Of a stretch of 7,121 nt of DNA, positions 1 to 7,121 are shown in pieces. Position 1 is the stretch's first letter. Each line of letters opens with the position of its first letter. The translations under genes and the position numbers were made by a program. Origin of the DNA: a virus (lineage: Duplodnaviria; Heunggongvirae; Uroviricota; Caudoviricetes); IMG/VR virus record IMGVR_UViG_2648501841_000011, positions 1 through 7,121 of that record; one strand, written 5' to 3'. Under the pieces are notes generated by a model. The model was given only the letters and a program-made list of their open reading frames with translations, was not told where the DNA came from and did no database searches.

Positions 1-48
1 AAGCGGGTTAAGTGCGGGTGCGTTGAGGATGCCTGATTCATCAGAGGT

Positions 49-70
49 GGCGAGGGATTTCTCCCTCGCC
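49..70 (-). other. perfect 9-bp stem / 4-nt loop hairpin (GGCGAGGGA-tttc-TCCCTCGCC) just 3' of the hok stop; probable hok mRNA 3' structural element
   Basis: Inverted repeat read directly; a second small palindrome CTGA-ttca-TCAG sits at 33-44. No U-tract follows on the minus strand, so this is not a classical intrinsic terminator; hok mRNAs are known to carry structured 3' ends. Confidence 0.4.
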
Positions 71-77
71 GGGTCTC

Positions 78-233
78 TTACTCCTCAGGTTCGTAAGCTG
101 TGAAGACAGCGACCTCCGTCTGGCCGGTTCGGATTCGTACCTCGCAGAGGTCTTTCCTCGTTACCAGTGCCGTCACTATGACGGTTAAACAGATGACGAT
201 CAGGGCGATTAACATCGCCTTTTGCTGCTTCAT
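78..233 (-). CDS. hok: Hok/Gef-family type I toxin, 51-aa small membrane peptide (MKQQKAMLIALIVICLTVIVTALVTRKDLCEVRIRTGQTEVAVFTAYEPEE)
   Basis: ATG at 231-233 (minus) preceded by AAGGAGAAG SD; N-terminal hydrophobic helix followed by the conserved LVTRKDLCEV...GQTEVAVF core typical of Hok/Gef/RelF peptides; the flanking leader has hok-mRNA-like sequence blocks (GCUUGAGGCU-UCUGCCUC and UAGCCUCUUACGCGCC...AAGGAGAAG). From memory it is closest to HokD/RelF-type sequences, but no relBE genes lie upstream, so a specific paralogue is not assigned. Confidence 0.9.
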   Translation of the reverse strand: MKQQKAMLIALIVICLTVIVTALVTRKDLCEVRIRTGQTEVAVFTAYEPEE

Positions 234-290
234 AGCCTGCTTCTCCTTGCCTTTCGGCGCGTAAGAGGCTAACCTACATGTGTCTAGCAT
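78..290 (-). CDS. mok: mok-like reading frame: 70-codon in-frame N-terminal extension of hok (translational-coupling ORF)
   Basis: ORF track 78..290; ATG at 288-290 lies 57 nt upstream of and in frame with the hok ATG, the arrangement annotated for chromosomal mok/hok pairs. Whether it is translated is inferred, not shown. Confidence 0.45.
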   Translation of the reverse strand: MLDTCRLASYAPKGKEKQAMKQQKAMLIALIVICLTVIVTALVTRKDLCEVRIRTGQTEVAVFTAYEPEE

Positions 291-345
291 GAAATTGGCC
301 TCAGATTAATGTTAGGCGTCTTGCAGGACGCGTAATGTTAACTGG
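282..345 (+). ncRNA. sok: putative Sok-like antisense RNA overlapping the mok start and hok leader (boundaries approximate)
   Basis: Plus-strand promoter-like TTGCCT (247-252), 17-nt spacer, TAACCT (270-275) inside the mok frame, pointing antisense to the hok leader; small hairpin GCGTC-ttgcag-GACGC at 316-331. The position is that expected for Sok in hok/sok loci; ends not determinable from sequence. Confidence 0.3.
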
Positions 346-404
346 GGCTTTTCTCTATCTGCCGTTGGTGTTCATGCCCGAGGCAGATAGCCTCAAGCAC
401 CCGC

Positions 405-440
405 AGCTATTCTACTTAACTTCCCATTACCTCGCCAATA
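405..440 (-). promoter_or_regulatory. putative hok/mok promoter (minus strand): -35 TGGCGA (432-437), 17-nt spacer, -10 TAGAAT (409-414)
   Basis: Sigma70-like hexamers with 17-bp spacing, placed just upstream of the conserved hok-mRNA 5' block that begins near 400-403 on the minus strand. Confidence 0.3.
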
Positions 441-837
441 TGAAATCGGTCAGAAAGACAGACGTCCCATAAGGACAACAACGGAAAAAGAGATTTTGCT
501 TGATGCTATTTACCTCTGCACCATGAAGTTGCGCCAAAATCCCAGTGGTGATAACAGGAATTTGGTTGTTGGTGATTGGGGAAAGAAGTACGTTAGACTG
601 TGGGTTAGTTCATTGACATGATAGTTACCTGCCTTCAATTTCCTAAGCAAGCGATGTAAACGATAATCAATATCAAATGTATTGACAGGTAAAATAATAA
701 CGATGTACCTTTGCTGATAACATATATCAGTCTTAAATCATAATGGAGGTAGATAAAATAACTAAACACACACAACAAATTTTTTATCAGTGACATAGCA
801 TATCTTAAGCATCCTTTAATGCTCATGGGGAGAACGC

Positions 838-1611
838 ATGACTAAACATATGGACATTCATTGTCAAACACGCATATTTAACTCAATTAACCATGACACC
901 AAATATAAAATATGTATTTTTACTCCAAAAAACATTAAAAAAAATAATGCAACTCTTTATATACTTGATGGGAATAGTGCCAACAATTACATTTCTGATA
1001 TTCTGCCTGTTATTGATGCACTACCCAATCCACCAGTGTTAGTTACACTTGGTTATGAATCTTGGAATAACCTTAGCATTCATCGCCGTGCTTACGATTA
1101 TACTCCTGATGGTGAAAATGCTATTGTTGATAACTCTAAACCAGCATGGATCTACTTTACTGGTGGAGGAAGCCAGTCTTTCCGAGAATTATTACTAACT
1201 CAGATCATGCCATGGGTTAGTACTATTGCTCCGAACAGTTCCAGAATCGGTATATGGGGGCACTCGCTAGGTGCTATTTTTGTGCTTGATTGCTTAAAAA
1301 ATAATTCATGCTTTAACTATTATTATATATCTGCACCATCACTTCTATGGCAGAATGAAAGAATCATCAAGATAATTAAAGATGATATATCAGAATCAAA
1401 GCACACTAAAAGTATATGCTTGCTTAACGGAAATCTTAGCCTTGATTACTCCGCATCTTTATATCCTGAAGCCATCAAAGCGGAATCTGTTTTGAGAAAT
1501 ATTTTGACAGAAAAATACAGTAATTTTTCTATTGTACAATTTCCAGAGCTCAATCATCAGGAGACTTTCTCTGCTGCACTCTGGAATAGCATTATTCATT
1601 TCAGCATATAA
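838..1611 (+). CDS. putative esterase, alpha/beta-hydrolase fold, PF00756-like (Fes / IroE / esterase-D type); AT-rich cargo gene
   Basis: 257-aa ORF with GGGGAGA SD 4 nt before the ATG; motifs LYILDGN, YDYTPDG, FTGGGSQSFRELLLTQIMPWV and the nucleophile elbow G-H-S-L-G-A match the siderophore-esterase / esterase-D family layout; no N-terminal signal peptide evident; markedly AT-rich relative to flanking phage DNA. Confidence 0.8.
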   Translation: MTKHMDIHCQTRIFNSINHDTKYKICIFTPKNIKKNNATLYILDGNSANNYISDILPVIDALPNPPVLVTLGYESWNNLSIHRRAYDYTPDGENAIVDNSKPAWIYFTGGGSQSFRELLLTQIMPWVSTIAPNSSRIGIWGHSLGAIFVLDCLKNNSCFNYYYISAPSLLWQNERIIKIIKDDISESKHTKSICLLNGNLSLDYSASLYPEAIKAESVLRNILTEKYSNFSIVQFPELNHQETFSAALWNSIIHFSI

Positions 1612-1962
1612 CAGAAAATATGTAATCACTTTATCAATCTAGCTAACATAACTGATATCAATCCTAATGGGTCTTTGAACATATTAAAAGATAACTTCTC
1701 ATTTGTACATTGTTGTGTTCTTAGACCCATTTCAAAAATACTATTTTTTAGATACTAATAATTACATCCATTTAGCTATCTTCTAAATACTCCTCTCAGT
1801 TTCTTCATTGGAGCTGATTCAACTCCGGCAATGCATACTAGGATCATTTTATAAGCATACAAACAACATCCAGACTGTGAATTATTGCTATTCATTTTCT
1901 ATGTATCTGCTCTTTTCCCATCCACTGAAACACCAGAATCCAAAGGTTTCATGTTATTTTCA

Positions 1963-2376
1963 CTATTCCATCATTACTCCTGTGTAAAATATCAAAACTC
2001 GCTGCATCACTTCACTGTTACGGCACTCACTACAAATTATGTTCAATTGCCTGTCATAGCGGCGTATTTCTCCGTCTGGTAATGACCAGATAAGGTCAGG
2101 ATCAACCACAACCGGTTTCTTCAGTTTTGCCCTCGATAGTTTTTTGCGGGCGTTTTGCCAGTCCTTACGAGCCTGTTCAGATGGGAATAACCCGTAACCA
2201 GAGTTGTATACATCGCCACTGGCAACCAGCTCTCTGGCAAGAACGCTCATCAGATATCTTGTCGCACCTGTCTTGGCTTCCAGTTGCCGTAACGTCTCGC
2301 GCCCACTCCGGCGTACTAGCTCAACAACCTGCCCTTTAATTTTTTCCCGCTCTTCCTGTGTAAATACTTTTGCCAT
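1963..2376 (-). CDS. hypothetical phage protein (137 aa) with HTH-like N-terminal region; last gene of the minus-strand early operon in this window
   Basis: ATG at 2374-2376 (minus) with GGAGG SD 5 nt upstream; the ORF track's TTG start at 2391 is rejected; its SD overlaps the stop of the upstream gene (operon coupling). Function not recognised. Confidence 0.6.
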   Translation of the reverse strand: MAKVFTQEEREKIKGQVVELVRRSGRETLRQLEAKTGATRYLMSVLARELVASGDVYNSGYGLFPSEQARKDWQNARKKLSRAKLKKPVVVDPDLIWSLPDGEIRRYDRQLNIICSECRNSEVMQRVLIFYTGVMME

Positions 2377-2391
2377 AAGCGCCTCCGGCAA

Positions 2392-3257
2392 TCACTTTTC
2401 CGATACAACACGGCGGGAAGAATCAGTAATCTGTCGAACAATATCCCGGTGCTTGTTCAGCTCCCGCAGCGCGGCGCAGACTCGCTCCCACTTCTGAACA
2501 TCACTTTTCGCCCTGCGCAGCGCCAGGTTTGCCCTGCGAAGGGACGGAAAAATCAGCTCATCTGCTTGCGTTTCGGTAAACGATGGCAACGGCTGCACAA
2601 TGTCCGCCACAGTTTCTGTTTTAATTTCTTCCTGTGTTGCGGCTTCCCGGACTGGTAACGCAGCACCTGCTGGCTGAGGAAAGGCCTTACCATCATTTTT
2701 CGTTACCGGCGCGGCTTTCGGATCTGCTGGTAAATTACCCCCCGACATGCAGTAACGAAATTTACCGTTCTGATTAACGCGNNNNNNNNNNCTTTCCGTT
2801 ACCAGCGCGGCTTTCGGCTCTGCTGGTAAATTATCGCCCGGCATGCAGTAACGAAATTTACCGTTCTGATTAACGCGTGCCAGCCGCCCCGTTGCGGTTA
2901 CCACCGCCAGCGTGGAAGCAACCTTGCGAGTACTGACGCCGAACTTACCCGCCAGTTCCTCACACGTTTTAGCACCATCCTGACCGATAAACTCAACCAT
3001 CATGTCTGCGGTAACTTTTGGAGCGACCTCTTCGGTTACCACATCCGGCGCTTCAGGTTGTAGTGCCTGCCCTTCGGTTACCCCGGCTTCACCTTCGACA
3101 GCCAGAAACCAGGTGTGACCCGTTTTATCAACAACGCCATTTTTTTGAGTTCCCACAGTTCGTTAAGAACTTCTTCACGGCTGATATCAAGCCGCGCCGC
3201 CAGTTCAACAGAATTGGCTTTTCCCATCGCTTTCAGTGCATGCAATACAGTTTCCAT
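2392..3257 (-). CDS. phage protein with winged-helix-like N-terminus and an internal 32-aa tandem repeat; reading frame broken by a 1-nt frameshift at an A7 tract (plus-strand T7 at 3140-3146) and containing a 10-N gap (2782-2791)
   Basis: ATG at 3255-3257 (minus) with GAGGT SD encodes [39 protein letters not shown], then reaches the A7 run; that frame stops at 3078-3080 (59 codons), while the other frame (ORF track 2392..3156) continues [18 protein letters not shown]... for 249 codons. One extra A, or a -1 slip, would give about 288 aa. Position directly downstream of the dnaC-like gene. Confidence 0.6.
2686..2877. repeat. 96-bp tandem direct duplication (2 copies) inside the coding sequence; the first 10 nt of copy 2 are masked as N
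   Basis: 2697-2781 and 2793-2877 align at a 96-nt offset with a few mismatches, encoding twice the peptide [12 protein letters not shown](P/S)G(D/G)NLPA(E/D)PKAA(L/P)VT; N run at 2782-2791. Confidence 0.85.
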
Positions 3258-3282
3258 CGAAAATTTACCTCGTCAAAAATTC

Positions 3283-4023
3283 TCACATACCCTGACGTCC
3301 AACGTTTGACCGCCAGCTCTCCCAGTTAAAATTCACCCAACGACCACCATTCATGGTCATACGGTCCATCACCCGATCTCCGAGGAGTGTGCTCATCGCT
3401 GCGTGATTCAGGTTCGTCAGCATTCCGACACTACACATCGAAGCCGTTCTGCGGTCGACTATCTGGTTCAGCGTGACCTGCTCGTTGCGCGTATCCCGCT
3501 GCATGCCAATTTCATCAAGGACCAGAAGGTCAACTCCACAAAGCTCCTGTAAAAATTTTTCCCCGGACTGGCCGTTGTCGTAGCCGTCATGCAACACGCT
3601 CATGACATCGGACACGGTGACGATAATCACGCTTCTCCCCTTCGCCATCAGCCGATTGCCAATCGCTGCTGCCAGGTGATTTTTACCGGTACCAGGTTTA
3701 CCGCTGAACACGAAGTTTGTACATCCGGTCATCAATTCATCGGCAATGGATTTCGCCTGGCTCAGAGCATGGCGCTGACCGTCGTTCTGCACCCGGTAGT
3801 TCCCGAATGAGCACTTCCTGTGAAGCGGCTGGATGCCCGCACGGTTCAGGATTTTTTCAACCCGCACCTGATGATTCAGGCGGTTAATCTCCTCGCTGCG
3901 TTTTCGTCGTTCAGCAAGTTGCCATTCCCGCCACTCCTCCACCGTCCGGTACGGTGGAACCGCCCCCTGTGGTGCAAGTCTGCGAATACGTTCAAGAACC
4001 CCAACTGCCGCAATGTTTTTCAT
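3283..4023 (-). CDS. DnaC-like replicative helicase loader (IstB-like AAA+ ATPase)
   Basis: 246-aa ORF; Walker A GKPGTGKNHLAAAIG and Walker B LLVLDEIG; GGGGG SD upstream of the ATG; immediately follows the replication initiator gene, as in the ydaU-ydaV-type arrangement of Rac-like prophages. Confidence 0.9.
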   Translation of the reverse strand: MKNIAAVGVLERIRRLAPQGAVPPYRTVEEWREWQLAERRKRSEEINRLNHQVRVEKILNRAGIQPLHRKCSFGNYRVQNDGQRHALSQAKSIADELMTGCTNFVFSGKPGTGKNHLAAAIGNRLMAKGRSVIIVTVSDVMSVLHDGYDNGQSGEKFLQELCGVDLLVLDEIGMQRDTRNEQVTLNQIVDRRTASMCSVGMLTNLNHAAMSTLLGDRVMDRMTMNGGRWVNFNWESWRSNVGRQGM

Positions 4024-4029
4024 GACACG

Positions 4030-4992
4030 TCACCCCCTGAATCCCGGCGGTATTTCAGTGTCCGGTTCAGAAATGTGATTCACGCAACGCTGCGCGGGCG
4101 AACGCCCCAGGCGGATAACCAGTTCATCCCATTTTTCCCGGAGTTTTGCCGGACTCATGATGTTTTTTACCCAGAACGAATCCCGCTGGAGACGCCCAAA
4201 CATTTCACAAATTTGTCTGTGAGTTCTGCCATCCAGCATCCGCATTGTCCGCACGTCATTGGCCCATGCAGTCCAGTTGGGTTCTTTCGGTCTCGTGATC
4301 TCGCCATCATCGCTGGCCGCCTGCTCGTAAAGACTCACGATTCGTCCCCAGATCCACTGTGCGCACACCAAATCTTCCTGACTTCCCCACTGGCGTTTTT
4401 TCGCACTGAACACAACCGCGTCAGGGTGTCGGGTTAAAAAATTCTGTTCAGCCGTCTGCGGGTCCGGTTGCGAAGCGTCCGGACAAGAAGATCTTTTATC
4501 TGACGGATCAGGTTTTAATACTGACGGATCGGGGTCAATCATCGCCCCCCTAATCGGCAGTTTGTTATCAACAGTTGATCCATCAAAATTTGACGGGTCA
4601 ACCGTTGAGGGGGCAATATTTGACGGGTCAACTGTTAACGGGTCATTTTTTGCCGGGCTAATTTTTCTTTTCGGTTTATATGACTCACGCGCCGCCGCAG
4701 CAGCTGCTTCGAGTTTTTCCACATTAAGCCGATAGATATTGCTTACATTACGCCCACCGACCTTACGCTCTTCCTTCGTCAGCCAGCCCTCTTTCGCCAG
4801 TTCTGCAATAGCCGATTTCACTGTGGATTCACTTCTTGCACCGATCTGACGCCGGATAGTTTCAATGGCAGGCCATGACACGCCCTCGTCATTGCTGTAG
4901 TCTGCAAGACGGGCCATAACCGCCACCCTGGATAAGATCATGCCGGTGAAGGCGCACCCTTCCCAGACAAGACCATGAAGCTTGCTGCTCAT
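4030..4992 (-). CDS. phage replication initiation protein (lambda O-like role): N-terminal winged-helix DNA-binding domain, low-complexity linker, C-terminal domain
   Basis: ATG at 4990-4992 (minus) with GGGGG SD; the ORF track's GTG at 5007 is rejected. N-terminus ...LSRVAVMARLADYSNDEGVSWPAIETIRRQIGARSESTVKSAIAELAKEGWL is typical of HTH-type replication initiators; gene order cro-like / cII-like / initiator / DnaC-like. Confidence 0.85.
   Translation of the reverse strand: MSSKLHGLVWEGCAFTGMILSRVAVMARLADYSNDEGVSWPAIETIRRQIGARSESTVKSAIAELAKEGWLTKEERKVGGRNVSNIYRLNVEKLEAAAAAARESYKPKRKISPAKNDPLTVDPSNIAPSTVDPSNFDGSTVDNKLPIRGAMIDPDPSVLKPDPSDKRSSCPDASQPDPQTAEQNFLTRHPDAVVFSAKKRQWGSQEDLVCAQWIWGRIVSLYEQAASDDGEITRPKEPNWTAWANDVRTMRMLDGRTHRQICEMFGRLQRDSFWVKNIMSPAKLREKWDELVIRLGRSPAQRCVNHISEPDTEIPPGFRG
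4495..4690. repeat. putative origin of replication: iteron-like repeats inside the initiator gene (TGACGG(A/G)TC x4; palindromic TCAACnGTTGA-type sites x3 at exact 30-bp spacing) next to an AT-rich stretch
   Basis: TGACGGATC at 4501 and 4522, TGACGGGTC at 4591 and 4621; TCAACAGTTGA 4568-4578, TCAACCGTTGA 4598-4608, TCAACTGTTAA 4628-4638; T-rich run 4644-4680. They encode the repetitive linker (VDPSN...STVDPSN...) of the initiator, like lambda ori lying within gene O. Confidence 0.45.
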
Positions 4993-5014
4993 AAAACCCC
5001 CGAACACCGTGCTT

Positions 5015-5440
5015 TTAGTGCATCACCACAGCATTCCCTGCCGGGCCGCCGCGATTCATCTGGTCATACAAAACAACCGCTGACGCAACAAAATCATCGA
5101 CATCCTTCACCAGCCGATCCCTCCGTTCGACGATCTCACGGTAATATTCAGAACTGTGGCTGCGCATACGGGCCACCAGCAAAGGCGGCATCGCCTTTTC
5201 GATCGCCGGTAACAGAGCCTGCATTTTTTCAACAGCATCAGGGGTGTCTTTATCCAGCCAACGGAAAATTTTCTGGGTATTACGGGCCAGGGCTTCCGGA
5301 TGGCTGTCGTCATACAGTTCCGGGAACGTCATTCCCAGCTCGAAATACGCTTTGGTAATTTTCGCAGCCGGTACTTTTTCGCCGTCCGGATGCGCCCAGA
5401 CATTCATCGCCATGCGGATGTGTTCATGCTTGATTTTCAT
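5015..5440 (-). CDS. ydaT: YdaT-like protein (reported from memory as a CII-like regulator partner of YdaS in Rac / CP-933P-type prophages)
   Basis: 141-aa ORF beginning MKIKHEHI...; its ATG overlaps the stop of the upstream cro-like gene (ATGA overlap at 5437-5440); position second in the early-right operon. Family assignment by recollection of YdaT sequences, not by search. Confidence 0.7.
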   Translation of the reverse strand: MKIKHEHIRMAMNVWAHPDGEKVPAAKITKAYFELGMTFPELYDDSHPEALARNTQKIFRWLDKDTPDAVEKMQALLPAIEKAMPPLLVARMRSHSSEYYREIVERRDRLVKDVDDFVASAVVLYDQMNRGGPAGNAVVMH

Positions 5441-5739
5441 GAATCAACTCCATCAGATAAGCATGCACTACAATCACCTTCAGCATGAACTACATGTGTT
5501 TGCCCCAAACGAATGCCGCTCGCATACTCAGGCCAAATAAGCTCCCAATCATGGGGTCGTAGCTCCGCCCTACTTACTTGGCCTTCCGTCGCAGATTCGA
5601 TCATAAGGGCGCGGGTTGGAGATATAGCTGTTCGTCCAGACGCCATTTGCGATAAGTAAGATGGCGATACACCAAGTCTGGCCGCGAATTTCTTAGCATC
5701 ACCAACCCTTAATGATTTAATAAACTCTTTTAATGTCAT
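5437..5739 (-). CDS. ydaS: Cro-like HTH regulator of the YdaS family
   Basis: 100-aa ORF with GAGGAAGG SD; HTH segment FAARLGVSPSYLSQMASGRTAISPTRALMIESATEGQVSRAELRPHDW matches the YdaS-type signature (LGVS...G.R.I...RA..IE.AT.G.V.R.ELRP.DW); divergent from the repressor gene. Confidence 0.85.
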   Translation of the reverse strand: MTLKEFIKSLRVGDAKKFAARLGVSPSYLSQMASGRTAISPTRALMIESATEGQVSRAELRPHDWELIWPEYASGIRLGQTHVVHAEGDCSACLSDGVDS

Positions 5740-5836
5740 ACCTTCCTCGGTTTAGTGTTTTTTTGCGAGTTTAGTGTTTAATAAACCATTAAGTCAAGTA
5801 TTTGCTTGTTTAGTGATTACTAAAGATAATTACCAC
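5740..5836. promoter_or_regulatory. divergent promoter/operator region between cro-like and cI-like genes with three GTTTAGTG(T/A)TT repeats
   Basis: GTTTAGTGTTT at 5750-5760 and 5769-5779, GTTTAGTGATT at 5808-5818 (the last within the palindrome TTTAGT-gatt-ACTAAA, 5809-5824); plus-strand TTGCTT (5802-5807), 17-nt spacer, GATAAT (5825-5830) ends 6 nt before the paaR2 ATG. Confidence 0.6.
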
Positions 5837-6208
5837 ATGCAAAAAAAAGAAATTCGCCGTTTACGTCTCAAGGAGTGGTTTAAAGATAAAACTCTGCCAC
5901 CCAAAGAGAAGAGCTACCTATCTCAACTAATGAGTGGGAGAGCCTCGTTTGGAGAAAAGGCTGCCAGAAGAATAGAGCAAACATACGGGATGCCGGAAGG
6001 GTATCTGGATGCGGAATACGCAGAACAACCGGGGGGTTCTCCACCACATGCAGGGTTAACGTCTAATCAACTGGAATTATTGCAGATTTTTTCAGCCTTC
6101 CCTGAGGATGAGCAACGCCAGATAATCAGCGAGTTAAAGCAGAAAAAAGAATCAATGGAAGATCTCATAGCGAGATGGATTGCGGCGCAAAAATGCCGCC
6201 GCGCCTGA
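5837..6208 (+). CDS. paaR2: PaaR2-like HTH transcriptional regulator in the CI-repressor position; first gene of the paaR2-paaA2-parE2 module
   Basis: 123 codons from ATG 5837; N-terminal CI/Cro-type HTH (EKSYLSQLMSGRASFGEKAARRIEQTYGMPEGYLD); the ORF track's GTG start at 5774 lies inside an operator repeat and is rejected; the -10 element abuts the ATG, suggesting a leaderless transcript. Confidence 0.8.
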   Translation: MQKKEIRRLRLKEWFKDKTLPPKEKSYLSQLMSGRASFGEKAARRIEQTYGMPEGYLDAEYAEQPGGSPPHAGLTSNQLELLQIFSAFPEDEQRQIISELKQKKESMEDLIARWIAAQKCRRA

Positions 6209-6228
6209 GTTATAAAACCGGAGGAAAC

Positions 6229-6420
6229 ATGAATAGAGCCCTTTCACCAATGGTTTCTGAATTTGAAACCATTGAACAAGAAAACAGTTACAACGAATGG
6301 CTGCGTGCGAAAGTAGCAACGAGCCTTGCAGATCCGCGCCCAGCAATTCCCCATGACGAAGTTGAGCGCAGAATGGCAGAACGCTTTGCTAAGATGCGCA
6401 AGGAACGGAGCAAGCAGTAA
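6229..6420 (+). CDS. paaA2: PaaA2 antitoxin (63 aa), partner of ParE2
   Basis: ATG at 6229 with GGAGG SD 5 nt upstream; peptide MNRALSPMVSEFETIEQENSYNEWLRAKV... recognised from memory as PaaA2; its stop (6418-6420) is 1 nt from the parE2 ATG. The ORF track's upstream ATG at 6175 lies inside paaR2 and is rejected. Confidence 0.8.
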   Translation: MNRALSPMVSEFETIEQENSYNEWLRAKVATSLADPRPAIPHDEVERRMAERFAKMRKERSKQ

Positions 6421-6421
6421 A

Positions 6422-6700
6422 ATGTTACCCGTGTTATGGCTTGAAAGCGCAGATACCGACCTAGATGATATAACTAGTTATATTGCTCGTTTCGACATAG
6501 ATGCGGCTGAACGCTTATGACAGCGATTAAGGGGTTGTGTGCTGCCGTTATCCGAACATCCGTATTTATACCCACCAAGCGACAGAGTACCTGGCTTGCG
6601 TGAGATTGTAGCCCACCCTAACTATATAATTCTATACCGCGTAACAACATCAAGCGTTGAAGTAGTAAACGTGATCCACGCAAGACGCCAGTTTCCCTAA
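6422..6700 (+). pseudogene. parE2: parE2 (ParE/RelE-superfamily toxin) interrupted by an in-frame TGA at codon 33 (6518-6520)
   Basis: ATG 6422; N-terminal 32 codons MLPVLWLESADTDLDDITSYIARFDIDAAERL, then TGA; the same frame continues without a stop as QRLRGCVLPLSEHPYLYPPSDRVPGLREIVAHPNYIILYRVTTSSVEVVNVIHARRQFP to TAA at 6698-6700. Both halves have ParE-like character; 279 nt in total would give a 92-aa toxin if the TGA were a sense codon (TGG is one transition away). Confidence 0.7.
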
Positions 6701-6718
6701 CTTTCACTACCAATAGAA

Positions 6719-6765
6719 ACATAACAACCGCAACGACTTTATCAAAAGCGTTGTGTTTGTTATGT
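6719..6765. other. long inverted repeat / hairpin downstream of parE2 (ACATAACAA ... TTGTTATGT arms with nested CAACG/CGTTG)
   Basis: Perfect 9-bp arms at 6719-6727 and 6757-6765 with an internal sub-palindrome; begins about 19 nt after the parE2 stop; no clear U-tract, so terminator function is uncertain. Confidence 0.4.
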
Positions 6766-6771
6766 CCCGCG

Positions 6772-6812
6772 GTTTAGTTTTTACTTGACTTAAGTTTAAT
6801 GTTTATTAAACT
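6772..6812 (+). promoter_or_regulatory. putative rightward (PL-like) promoter with a fourth operator-like motif: GTTTAGTTTTT (6772-6782), -35 TTGACT (6784-6789), -10-like TAAACT about 16-17 nt downstream
   Basis: One-mismatch copy of the intergenic operator motif immediately upstream of, and overlapping, a sigma70-like hexamer pair on the plus strand. Confidence 0.35.
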
Positions 6813-7121
6813 AAAAATACCAACCCACCCCGCCCCACAGAACGCAGGGAAATACTTCGAGTTACCCGGCAGTGGTCAGGGGTTAAGTAGCCAGCCCGAG
6901 GCGTATGAACATGACGGCAGGGTTCAACTTTAATAACTATGCAGCAGGTTTTTGTTCCGCTACCCCGGCGTTAAGGGGAAACAGAGGGTTTCTCAGTGGG
7001 CGAAGTCAAACATCAGAATGGAAGGCATCCCGGGATCGGCAAAGAAGCAGCAATGGCGCTTTATATTGACATCAGCGCCATTGCAGGACAGGTAAGAGTT
7101 ATCAGAGCGGTAACTAAGCGG

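Follow-up and report, generated by a model that had tools for sequence, protein, structure and literature searches.

An AT-rich prophage cargo gene of Escherichia coli encodes a leaderless IroE-like esterase, possibly an iron-regulated siderophore hydrolase

Here, we show that an AT-rich island in a 7,121-nucleotide stretch of DNA from a Caudoviricetes virus (IMG/VR record IMGVR_UViG_2648501841_000011, positions 1 to 7,121; the whole of this stretch is called the window below) carries a gene for a leaderless IroE-like serine esterase. The coding sequence (CDS) runs from an ATG start at position 838 to position 1611 on the + strand, specifies 257 amino acids, and corresponds to ECs1077 (WP_000160654.1) of E. 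coli O157:H7 Sakai. We hold with high confidence that the protein belongs among the IroE-like siderophore esterases and that its active site is intact; it is a divergent, phage-borne member of a known enzyme family and not a new kind of system. What would such an enzyme do in a lysogen? The explanation that we favor, to which as a whole we give a probability of about 0.5, is that the prophage carries, as a cargo gene or moron, an iron-regulated hydrolase of siderophore esters that would act in the cytoplasm in the manner of BesA or Fes.

The family assignment is carried by sequence and by predicted fold. A first-pass annotation of the window had read the protein as a PF00756-like hydrolase of the Fes/IroE/esterase-D superfamily. 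The open reading frame (ORF) and the motifs on which that reading was based were all found again (LYILDGN at residues 40–46, YDYTPDG at 86–92, GGG at 109–111 and GHSLG at 141–145), and phmmer and Foldseek comparisons support the superfamily and narrow it to the IroE-like siderophore-esterase clade. The Pfam label itself fared less well than the kinship that it was meant to express: the match to PF00756 reaches 17 bits (E=0.005), against a gathering score of 22, whereas IroE (2GZR) is matched by phmmer in the Protein Data Bank (PDB) at E=5e-26 over residues 8–253, with about 30% identity, and the fold agrees. All 12 aligned relatives match PF00756, the best at 5.8e-20. Further phmmer matches in the PDB are BES (9e-13), PfeE (1.5e-11), the fungal EstA/EstB, and a Shewanella "IroE-like serine hydrolase" (1.8e-7). 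No match to the hydrolase was found in NCBIfam, nor in PADLOC at E ≤1, and PHROGs offers only phrog_8493, of "unknown function", which is essentially the same protein. The AlphaFold2 model, built from a 126-sequence alignment, has a predicted local distance difference test score (pLDDT) of 91.6 and a predicted template modeling score (pTM) of 0.92, and it presents a lid-less alpha/beta-hydrolase fold that, as modeled, is nearest to IroE, PfeE, and BES. In a Foldseek search of the PDB, siderophore hydrolases (PfeE, IroE, BES, EstA/EstB, and the Shewanella IroE-like protein) take all of the first 30 places, with template modeling (TM) scores of 0.72–0.82; feruloyl esterases, esterase D, and Fes rank below them.

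Within this clade the protein stands apart. A word-seeded search of 5.8 billion proteins returned E. coli copies at 83% identity or above and a next best match at 31%, and when 1.84 billion cluster representatives were scanned exhaustively with HMMER, only the E. coli copies were above 33% identity. The best non-self match is a Pantoea protein (31% identity, 111 bits), which hardly surpasses the 95 bits of IroE. By these comparisons the protein forms an isolated branch, the low-GC donor lineage of which is apparently unsampled.

Does the protein keep the catalytic apparatus of IroE? Residues were paired through the alignment with 2gzr, in which the crystal-chain numbering of IroE plus 40 gives the full-length numbering, and their conservation was followed in 123 relatives. 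Ser143, the nucleophile in GHSLG (codon 1264–1266, + strand), corresponds to IroE Ser189 and is kept in 122 of these relatives, and His240 (codon 1555–1557, +), the equivalent of His287, is kept in 119. Asp44 (codon 967–969, +; IroE Asp90) and Arg84 (codon 1087–1089, +; IroE Arg130) are present in all 123, as is D87. IroE itself works through a Ser189–His287 dyad and not through a triad (PMC10515146; PMC2661963, citing Larsen et al. 2006). The Ser-His-Asp triad predicted in the first-pass annotation does not hold up: the acid position after strand beta-7 is unconserved, and at residue 197 relatives have V, R, Q, or K, whereas this protein has Asn and a second allele, described below, has Ser. 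Given the dyad of IroE and this unconserved position, a Ser-His-Asp triad is the wrong test for the clade. As aligned, a Ser143–His240 dyad and an Arg84/Asp44 pair, both of the IroE type, are present. Arg130 of IroE reportedly forms the oxyanion hole and is anchored by Asp90; in the present protein the dyad would perform catalysis, and the guanidinium group of Arg84, positioned by Asp44, would form the oxyanion hole.

The N-terminus sets the protein apart from most of its relatives. The conserved core is preceded by 22 residues here and by a median of 56 in the 123 relatives, and the maximum hydropathy over 12 residues is -0.08, against 2.0 or more in 92 of the 123. The IroE of K. aerogenes, 30% identical, aligns only from its residue 52, its leader being about 50 residues long. 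An in-frame TAA at 817–819, six codons upstream, and upstream stops in all three frames rule out an N-terminal extension of the ORF, and a Shine-Dalgarno sequence, GGGGAG (827–832, +), lies 5 nt before the ATG. That the protein has no signal peptide, as had been noted before, is thus confirmed on three counts: the N-terminus is short, has no hydrophobic stretch, and follows upon stops in three frames. With neither a signal peptide nor a membrane anchor, a cytoplasmic location is to be expected. Such proteins occur elsewhere in the family, as 6 of the 123 relatives and also the Bacillus BES are leaderless. We also considered a type III effector and rejected it, since the fold starts at residue 8 and the protein has no disordered N-terminal secretion signal.

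The protein can be compared with characterized enzymes of both the periplasm and the cytoplasm. IroE, the salmochelin/enterobactin trilactone hydrolase of the iroBCDEN cluster (2GZR/2GZS), is its best sequence match among solved structures and shares with it the lid-less single domain, the Ser-His dyad, and the Arg/Asp oxyanion pair. IroE is periplasmic, however, with a hydrophobic leader or anchor of about 45–50 residues, whereas the protein studied here begins at the catalytic core, and IroE is encoded in a Fur-regulated iro operon beside iroN, whereas the present gene stands alone in a prophage slot. Both features that define IroE proper, periplasmic targeting and linkage to an iro cluster, are absent as far as the sequence tells. 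BesA/BES, the Bacillus bacillibactin-enterobactin trilactone hydrolase (2QM0), is likewise leaderless, lid-less, and single-domain (TM ~0.75), and it acts in the cytoplasm, which makes it the closest functional analogy for the role proposed here; by this analogy the protein would work most like BesA, although the identity of about 21% in the structural alignment makes BesA/BES more distant than IroE. BesA/BES is chromosomal, linked to Bacillus iron-uptake genes, and not phage-borne. Fes and IroD belong to the same superfamily and share the proposed compartment and iron-release role, and their catalytic domain is matched by Foldseek at E ~1e-9 to 1e-10 (query-normalized TM score, TMq, 0.65–0.69). 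In contrast to the present protein, they carry an N-terminal lid domain of about 150 residues (crystal chains of about 385–390 residues), on account of which the target-normalized TM score of Fes is only 0.45–0.47, and they use a Ser-His-Glu triad (PMC10515146) that is absent here. PfeE of P. aeruginosa (6GI0) and the fungal EstA/EstB, also lid-less, are the top Foldseek matches (E ~1e-19, TM 0.75–0.82), but are only about 20% identical in sequence; PfeE is periplasmic and encoded beside the receptor gene pfeA (PMC8001512), and EstA/EstB cleave hydroxamate fusarinines with a Glu-containing triad (PDB entry titles list an E211Q mutant).

Is the gene under iron control? Control through Fur was the single prior hypothesis tested, with scans for the 19-bp consensus and for the 7-1-7 pattern. 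At 656–674 (+), 182 nt upstream of the ATG, lies a Fur-box-like site, GTAAACGATAATCAATATC, that agrees with the consensus GATAATGATAATCATTATC at 15 of 19 positions; when the 241-nt upstream region is shuffled with its dinucleotides preserved, only 0.5% of the shuffles score as high (p ~0.005). It is overlapped by a 7-1-7 match with 2 mismatches at 661–675, and a second, weaker Fur-like 7-1-7 palindrome with 3 mismatches, TGATAACATATATCA, is found at 715–729 (+), where it overlaps the -35 element of the best promoter-like site. These two are the only 7-1-7 matches with at most 3 mismatches in the window; both lie upstream of the gene, and the remaining 1.1 kb of the equally AT-rich island contains none. 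In the homologous loci L002 and L012 the 656–674 site is found at 14/19, and the 715–729 site is identical in L002. The promoter-like site itself (717–744, +; ATAACA, a 16-nt spacer, and CATAAT) is weak, with 9 of 12 positions in a consensus scan.

The same scan over the ~178 kb of loci that we fetched found sites of at least 15/19 at six places, namely upstream of the hydrolase gene, of two Pantoea homologs, of a TonB-dependent receptor (L008), of iroB, and of iroN, and at one further place in the Sakai prophage Sp4. A genuine iro cluster (L014) served as the positive control in place of a plasmid locus (L013) that is not a clean iro cluster, and it gave 15/19 at the iroB promoter and 16/19 at the iroN promoter. 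The matches at the Pantoea homologs, which are about 30% identical to the hydrolase, score 15/19 and lie 169 nt (L007, 3670–3688) and 72 nt (L011, 8782–8800) before the respective starts; they suggest that the whole esterase subfamily may be iron-regulated. The circumstantial evidence for a Fur operator is thus good, but with a promoter-like match this weak and the stronger site so far from the ATG it falls short of proof, and we regard Fur control of the hydrolase gene as rather probable. On the downstream side, a long imperfect hairpin (inverted repeat I3; 1666–1731, +) begins 55 nt after the stop codon and is followed by a U-rich stretch; its 16-nt arms are 88% complementary, its RNA fold has -26.7 kcal/mol (z = -2.84), and it may be the terminator of the moron transcript.

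The further place in Sp4 is a 16/19 match (L009, 26876–26900) in the rearranged lysis region of that prophage, flanked by ECs1100 (the holin gene) and ECs1101. All other strong Fur matches that we found are next to siderophore-related genes.

How did the gene come to lie in a prophage? The marked AT-richness of the gene and its flanks relative to both sides, pointed out before, is borne out by GC content in 200-nt windows: 0.28–0.41 over about 600–2000, against 0.47–0.57 to the right and 0.47–0.56 to the left. In third codon positions the hydrolase gene has a GC content of 0.283, compared with 0.48–0.62 in the neighboring phage genes. Homology to prophages with other cargo stops at 421–478 on the left and restarts at 1972–1997 on the right, which delimits a cargo module of about 1.5 kb (480–1970; GC 0.341, against 0.502 in the rest of the window); the island placed earlier at about 640–1960 is therefore real, with its edges now drawn further out. 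Across E. coli genomes the flanks are far commoner than the island (search with window positions 1–2400). A survey of related prophages, which had been proposed as a check, found the gene to be variably present between hokD and the DUF977 gene: at the same junction other prophages carry a HEPN-domain gene, QueH with or without a methyltransferase, a DUF5677 gene, or DUF7167 with small ORFs (L003, 2416–3348; L004, 1971–2636; L005, 2320–3345; L006, 2342–3456). By a rough estimate from an evenly spaced sample, about one quarter of the prophages with both flanks have the hydrolase. The alternative cargos are all on the strand of the phage operon, and the hydrolase alone is antisense to it. The island is joined to differing replication modules, DnaC-type in L001 and lambda-P-type in L002 and L012, and no direct or inverted repeats, as for a transposon or integration site, were found to flank it. 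A variable slot without transposon-like flanking repeats makes the gene a moron, and the earlier view of a separately acquired cargo gene is upheld.

The properties by which morons are recognized are seen here in the GC contrast, the variable slot, the opposite strand, and the downstream hairpin, while the promoter is a weak consensus match. Like the lambdoid morons bor and lom of lambda, the gene is compositionally foreign, autonomous, and placed for expression in the lysogen, but it differs from these classical cases in its product class and in its slot, which lies between the replication genes and hok/nin and not in the late region, and its autonomy is putative as long as the promoter of its own is a weak match only. 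The predicted Fur-type operator would parallel the Fur-regulated stx1 promoter of Stx1 phages.

The island appears to hold no second gene. A 63-aa hydrophobic ORF at 635–826 on the - strand, antisense to the promoter region of the hydrolase gene, is disrupted by indels and frameshifted in L012 and most likely spurious, and a gene in the 350 nt downstream of the hydrolase was rejected as well, since conservation in the island is lowest there, in the non-coding AT-rich tail (1612–1962; 79% identity between alleles, with gaps at 16 positions). An Rfam scan gave no match inside the island.

The range of cargos at the junction raises the question whether the slot is a defense hotspot, and the hydrolase a superinfection-exclusion or other phage-defense gene that destroys a molecule needed by an incoming phage. 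HEPN-domain and DUF5677 genes are typical of abortive-infection-like systems, those found in the slot could be uncatalogued defense genes, and the orientation of the hydrolase suits expression in the lysogen apart from lytic transcription. Neither the hydrolase nor the alternative slot cargos match PADLOC-DB 2.0, however, QueH and other cargos serve in metabolism or modification, the hydrolase has the fold and active site of a siderophore esterase, and the predicted Fur-type operator fits iron physiology instead. A defense function is, on this balance, very improbable. The hokD–DUF977 junction is in any case a cargo slot worth mining for further accessory genes.

Retention of the gene had also been attributed to the hok locus at its side. 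We find no support for this, as hokD/sok is part of the prophage backbone whatever cargo occupies the slot and is present in 4829 of 5426 complete E. coli genomes.

The island core (600–2000, 1.4 kb) occurs in 471 of these 5426 genomes, in 458 of them at 99% identity or above and in 13 at 80–90%, and in all rows listed of the complete-genome copies an intact CDS is annotated. Among the genomes listed the carriers are overwhelmingly O157:H7, O145, O26, O103, and other human or bovine isolates of the Shiga-toxin-producing E. coli type. In O157:H7 Sakai the gene lies in prophage Sp4 next to yccA and is annotated as "hypothetical protein", and the RefSeq name is "alpha/beta hydrolase". A literature search found no paper that mentions ECs1077 or its accessions and nothing relevant on an IroE-type esterase in O157 prophages. 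At the DNA level there was no match among INPHARED phages, and a protein-level phage search returned only relatives of about 29% identity, in non-phage-like records. An identical copy at NZ_CP124741.1 30059–30829 is in a 287-kb record that is labeled as a plasmid of E. coli O157:H7 EDL933 but probably represents a piece of the chromosome or of a prophage.

In sequence of such AT content, a frame of 257 codons would arise by chance with P ~1e-9 (estimated from about 7% stops per codon), and homology settles that the gene is real. Comparison with the allele of 87% identity in L002 gives a ratio of nonsynonymous to synonymous substitution rates (dN/dS) of 0.17 (dN 0.054, dS 0.31); the 27 substitutions leave the catalytic residues untouched, the CDS is 90.6% identical between the alleles against 79% for the downstream spacer, and the Shine-Dalgarno sequence and the ATG are kept in both. 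Judged from these substitution patterns, the gene is under purifying selection. A third allele, in L012 (GCA_046506925.1, 3700–4900; 89% CDS identity), has a +1 insertion and a 2-nt deletion and by its reading frame is a pseudogene, so that the gene is not indispensable everywhere. The mosaic around this copy differs, with lambda-P-type replication genes and, nearby, fragments of a pertussis-S1/scabin-like ADP-ribosyltransferase gene.

These data bear on the view that the gene is a silent or decaying passenger, an IroE-like gene truncated at its 5' end, deprived of its export signal when it was captured, kept silent by H-NS, and of use to neither phage nor host. One would then understand why a leader that 75% of the relatives possess is absent, why the gene is extremely AT-rich, why the L012 copy has two frameshifts, and why the long AT-rich non-coding flanks are poorly conserved (79%). 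But decay is hard to reconcile with a dN/dS of 0.17 over a dS of 0.31 between intact alleles, with a good Shine-Dalgarno sequence and ATG in both and catalytic residues intact, or with 458 complete genomes that hold a nearly identical copy, its CDS intact in all rows listed; leaderless members moreover exist elsewhere (BES and 6 of 123 relatives). We therefore consider a mere passenger improbable.

Action outside the cell, after lysis by the prophage or by non-classical release, would be another use for the enzyme; in the gut it might break down the enterobactin of competitors or, in catecholate microcins, the siderophore moiety. The prophage is of an inducible type and resides in gut pathogens, and IroE-type enzymes are said to prefer apo-siderophores. 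Such a role is nevertheless highly improbable: the protein has no export signal, the gene lies on the strand opposite to the lytic early operon and so would not be co-expressed with the lysis genes, and insertion sequence (IS) elements and frameshifted morphogenesis genes in Sp4 (Sakai, PV15-279) make a lysis-mediated release doubtful. In O157:H7 PV15-279, an ISEc8 (IS66-family) insertion splits the DUF977 gene to the right of the island (L001, 21364–24227), and the terminase and portal genes of the Sp4-type prophage are frameshifted; these lesions indicate that this prophage is defective.

How, then, could the enzyme serve the lysogen? In the explanation that we favor, an AT-rich, self-contained, horizontally acquired module would have been inserted antisense to the early rightward operon of the phage. 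In the lysogen, iron limitation would probably release expression through Fur operators in the promoter region of the gene itself, independent of lytic transcription of the phage. The leaderless enzyme would stay in the cytoplasm, where it would most likely cleave the ester backbone of imported catecholate trilactone siderophores, such as enterobactin-type compounds, their linear forms, and xenosiderophores, so that iron is released. All activities characterized among the structural neighbors consist in cleaving the ester backbone of a siderophore, either a trilactone or a fusarinine. Of the relatives examined, only P0020 lies within a locus for a catecholate siderophore (L008). The substrate had been called not evident in the first-pass annotation; this stands insofar as no linked genes reveal it, while the fold neighbors and the Fur-box-like site narrow the field to ester-linked siderophores, and we would call it an even chance that the true substrate is one of these.

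Several observations weigh against this explanation. At the level of the protein, the PF00756 score is below threshold and NCBIfam has no match, and with only 31–33% identity to the nearest relatives a transfer of substrate by homology is weak. At the level of regulation, the better Fur-box-like site is 182 nt from the ATG and, with 3 differences in 19 nt, no better conserved between alleles than its surroundings; promoter-like sites in the region are no more numerous than expected from shuffles, so that no promoter can be called with confidence; and H-NS often silences AT-rich foreign genes in E. coli. At the level of context, no siderophore transport or biosynthesis genes adjoin the hydrolase gene in the window or in loci L001 and L009, the neighbors being hokD/sok and phage replication genes, as had been noted before; the Erwiniaceae relatives (Pantoea, Duffyella) are stand-alone genes with uninformative context; one lineage has the frameshifted copy in L012; and E. 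coli already has Fes, so that the benefit is not obvious.

Some of these points lead directly to a different account, in which the protein is an active esterase of IroE fold that acts on some other cytoplasmic ester, a depsipeptide, or an acylated metabolite, its likeness to siderophore hydrolases reflecting ancestry only. Identity to any relative, characterized or not, is only 27–33%, the closest Erwiniaceae homologs are, like the gene itself, outside siderophore clusters, and the PF00756 family includes feruloyl esterases and S-formylglutathione hydrolases, even if these are found lower in the fold list. Yet all of the best 30 structural neighbors are siderophore hydrolases, the unusual Arg/Asp oxyanion arrangement of IroE is kept, and this gene and two "orphan" Pantoea homologs all have Fur-box-like sites in front of them. 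We regard a non-siderophore substrate as unlikely, while taking it seriously, and retain the siderophore-ester hydrolase as our preferred explanation.

If this explanation is right, the lid-less enzyme would open a second way of drawing iron from siderophores of the enterobactin type or from xenosiderophores acquired by piracy (salmochelin, bacillibactin breakdown products), and it would be the first enzyme for "iron piracy" of such a kind to be carried by a phage. It would also illustrate how an enzyme of the IroE fold can be moved from a periplasmic to a cytoplasmic site of action. As an iron-regulated siderophore esterase it would represent an iron-acquisition fitness factor for the gut that is delivered by a phage, alongside the iron-regulated cargo stx1. 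That Shiga-toxin-type E. coli thus undergoes lysogenic conversion by a temperate phage with a cytoplasmic siderophore esterase of its own, under the control of Fur, is a tentative proposal, with odds short of even. Should the enzyme prove ordinary or redundant with Fes, the outcome would be a routine improvement of the annotation, with "IroE-like esterase" in place of "hypothetical protein" or "alpha/beta hydrolase".

The surroundings of the island agree with the earlier description of a hok locus on the left and a phage replication operon on the right. On the left, the hokD toxin gene (78–233, - strand; PF01848, 3e-23; RefSeq annotation) and the sok antisense RNA (228–402, -; Rfam RF01794, 112.6 bits) form a complete type I toxin-antitoxin locus. 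On the right, the DUF977 gene (1963–2391, -; PF06163, 4e-27; annotated in L001 and L009) stands last in the early rightward (replication) operon, next to the slot, and the profile search found the order DUF977, DUF1627, DnaC/IstB-like ATPase, replication initiator, YdaT, and YdaS/Cro on the - strand; by this gene content the operon belongs to a lambdoid prophage.

The window is itself a scaffold, with a run of N at 2782–2791 between two 94%-identical copies of one 81-nt segment of the DUF1627 gene (2701–2876). This repeat consists of two overlapping contig ends joined by the scaffolder, and a real duplication is excluded. No complete E. coli genome contains at least 80% of the window contiguously; positions 1–2400 are Sp4-like, while for 2400–7121 the match, at 99.4%, is to another prophage of O157, and the join inside the window may therefore be chimeric. 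The island and both of its immediate flanks are on one side of the gap, and the findings on the island are therefore unaffected. Toward the far end of the window, an intact gene for a PaaA2-like antitoxin (6175–6420; PF21217, 1.7e-19) lies beside a ParE-like toxin ORF (6422–6700) that has an in-frame stop at codon 33 (6518–6520), and from its sequence the pair seems to consist of an orphaned antitoxin and a toxin that has become inactive.

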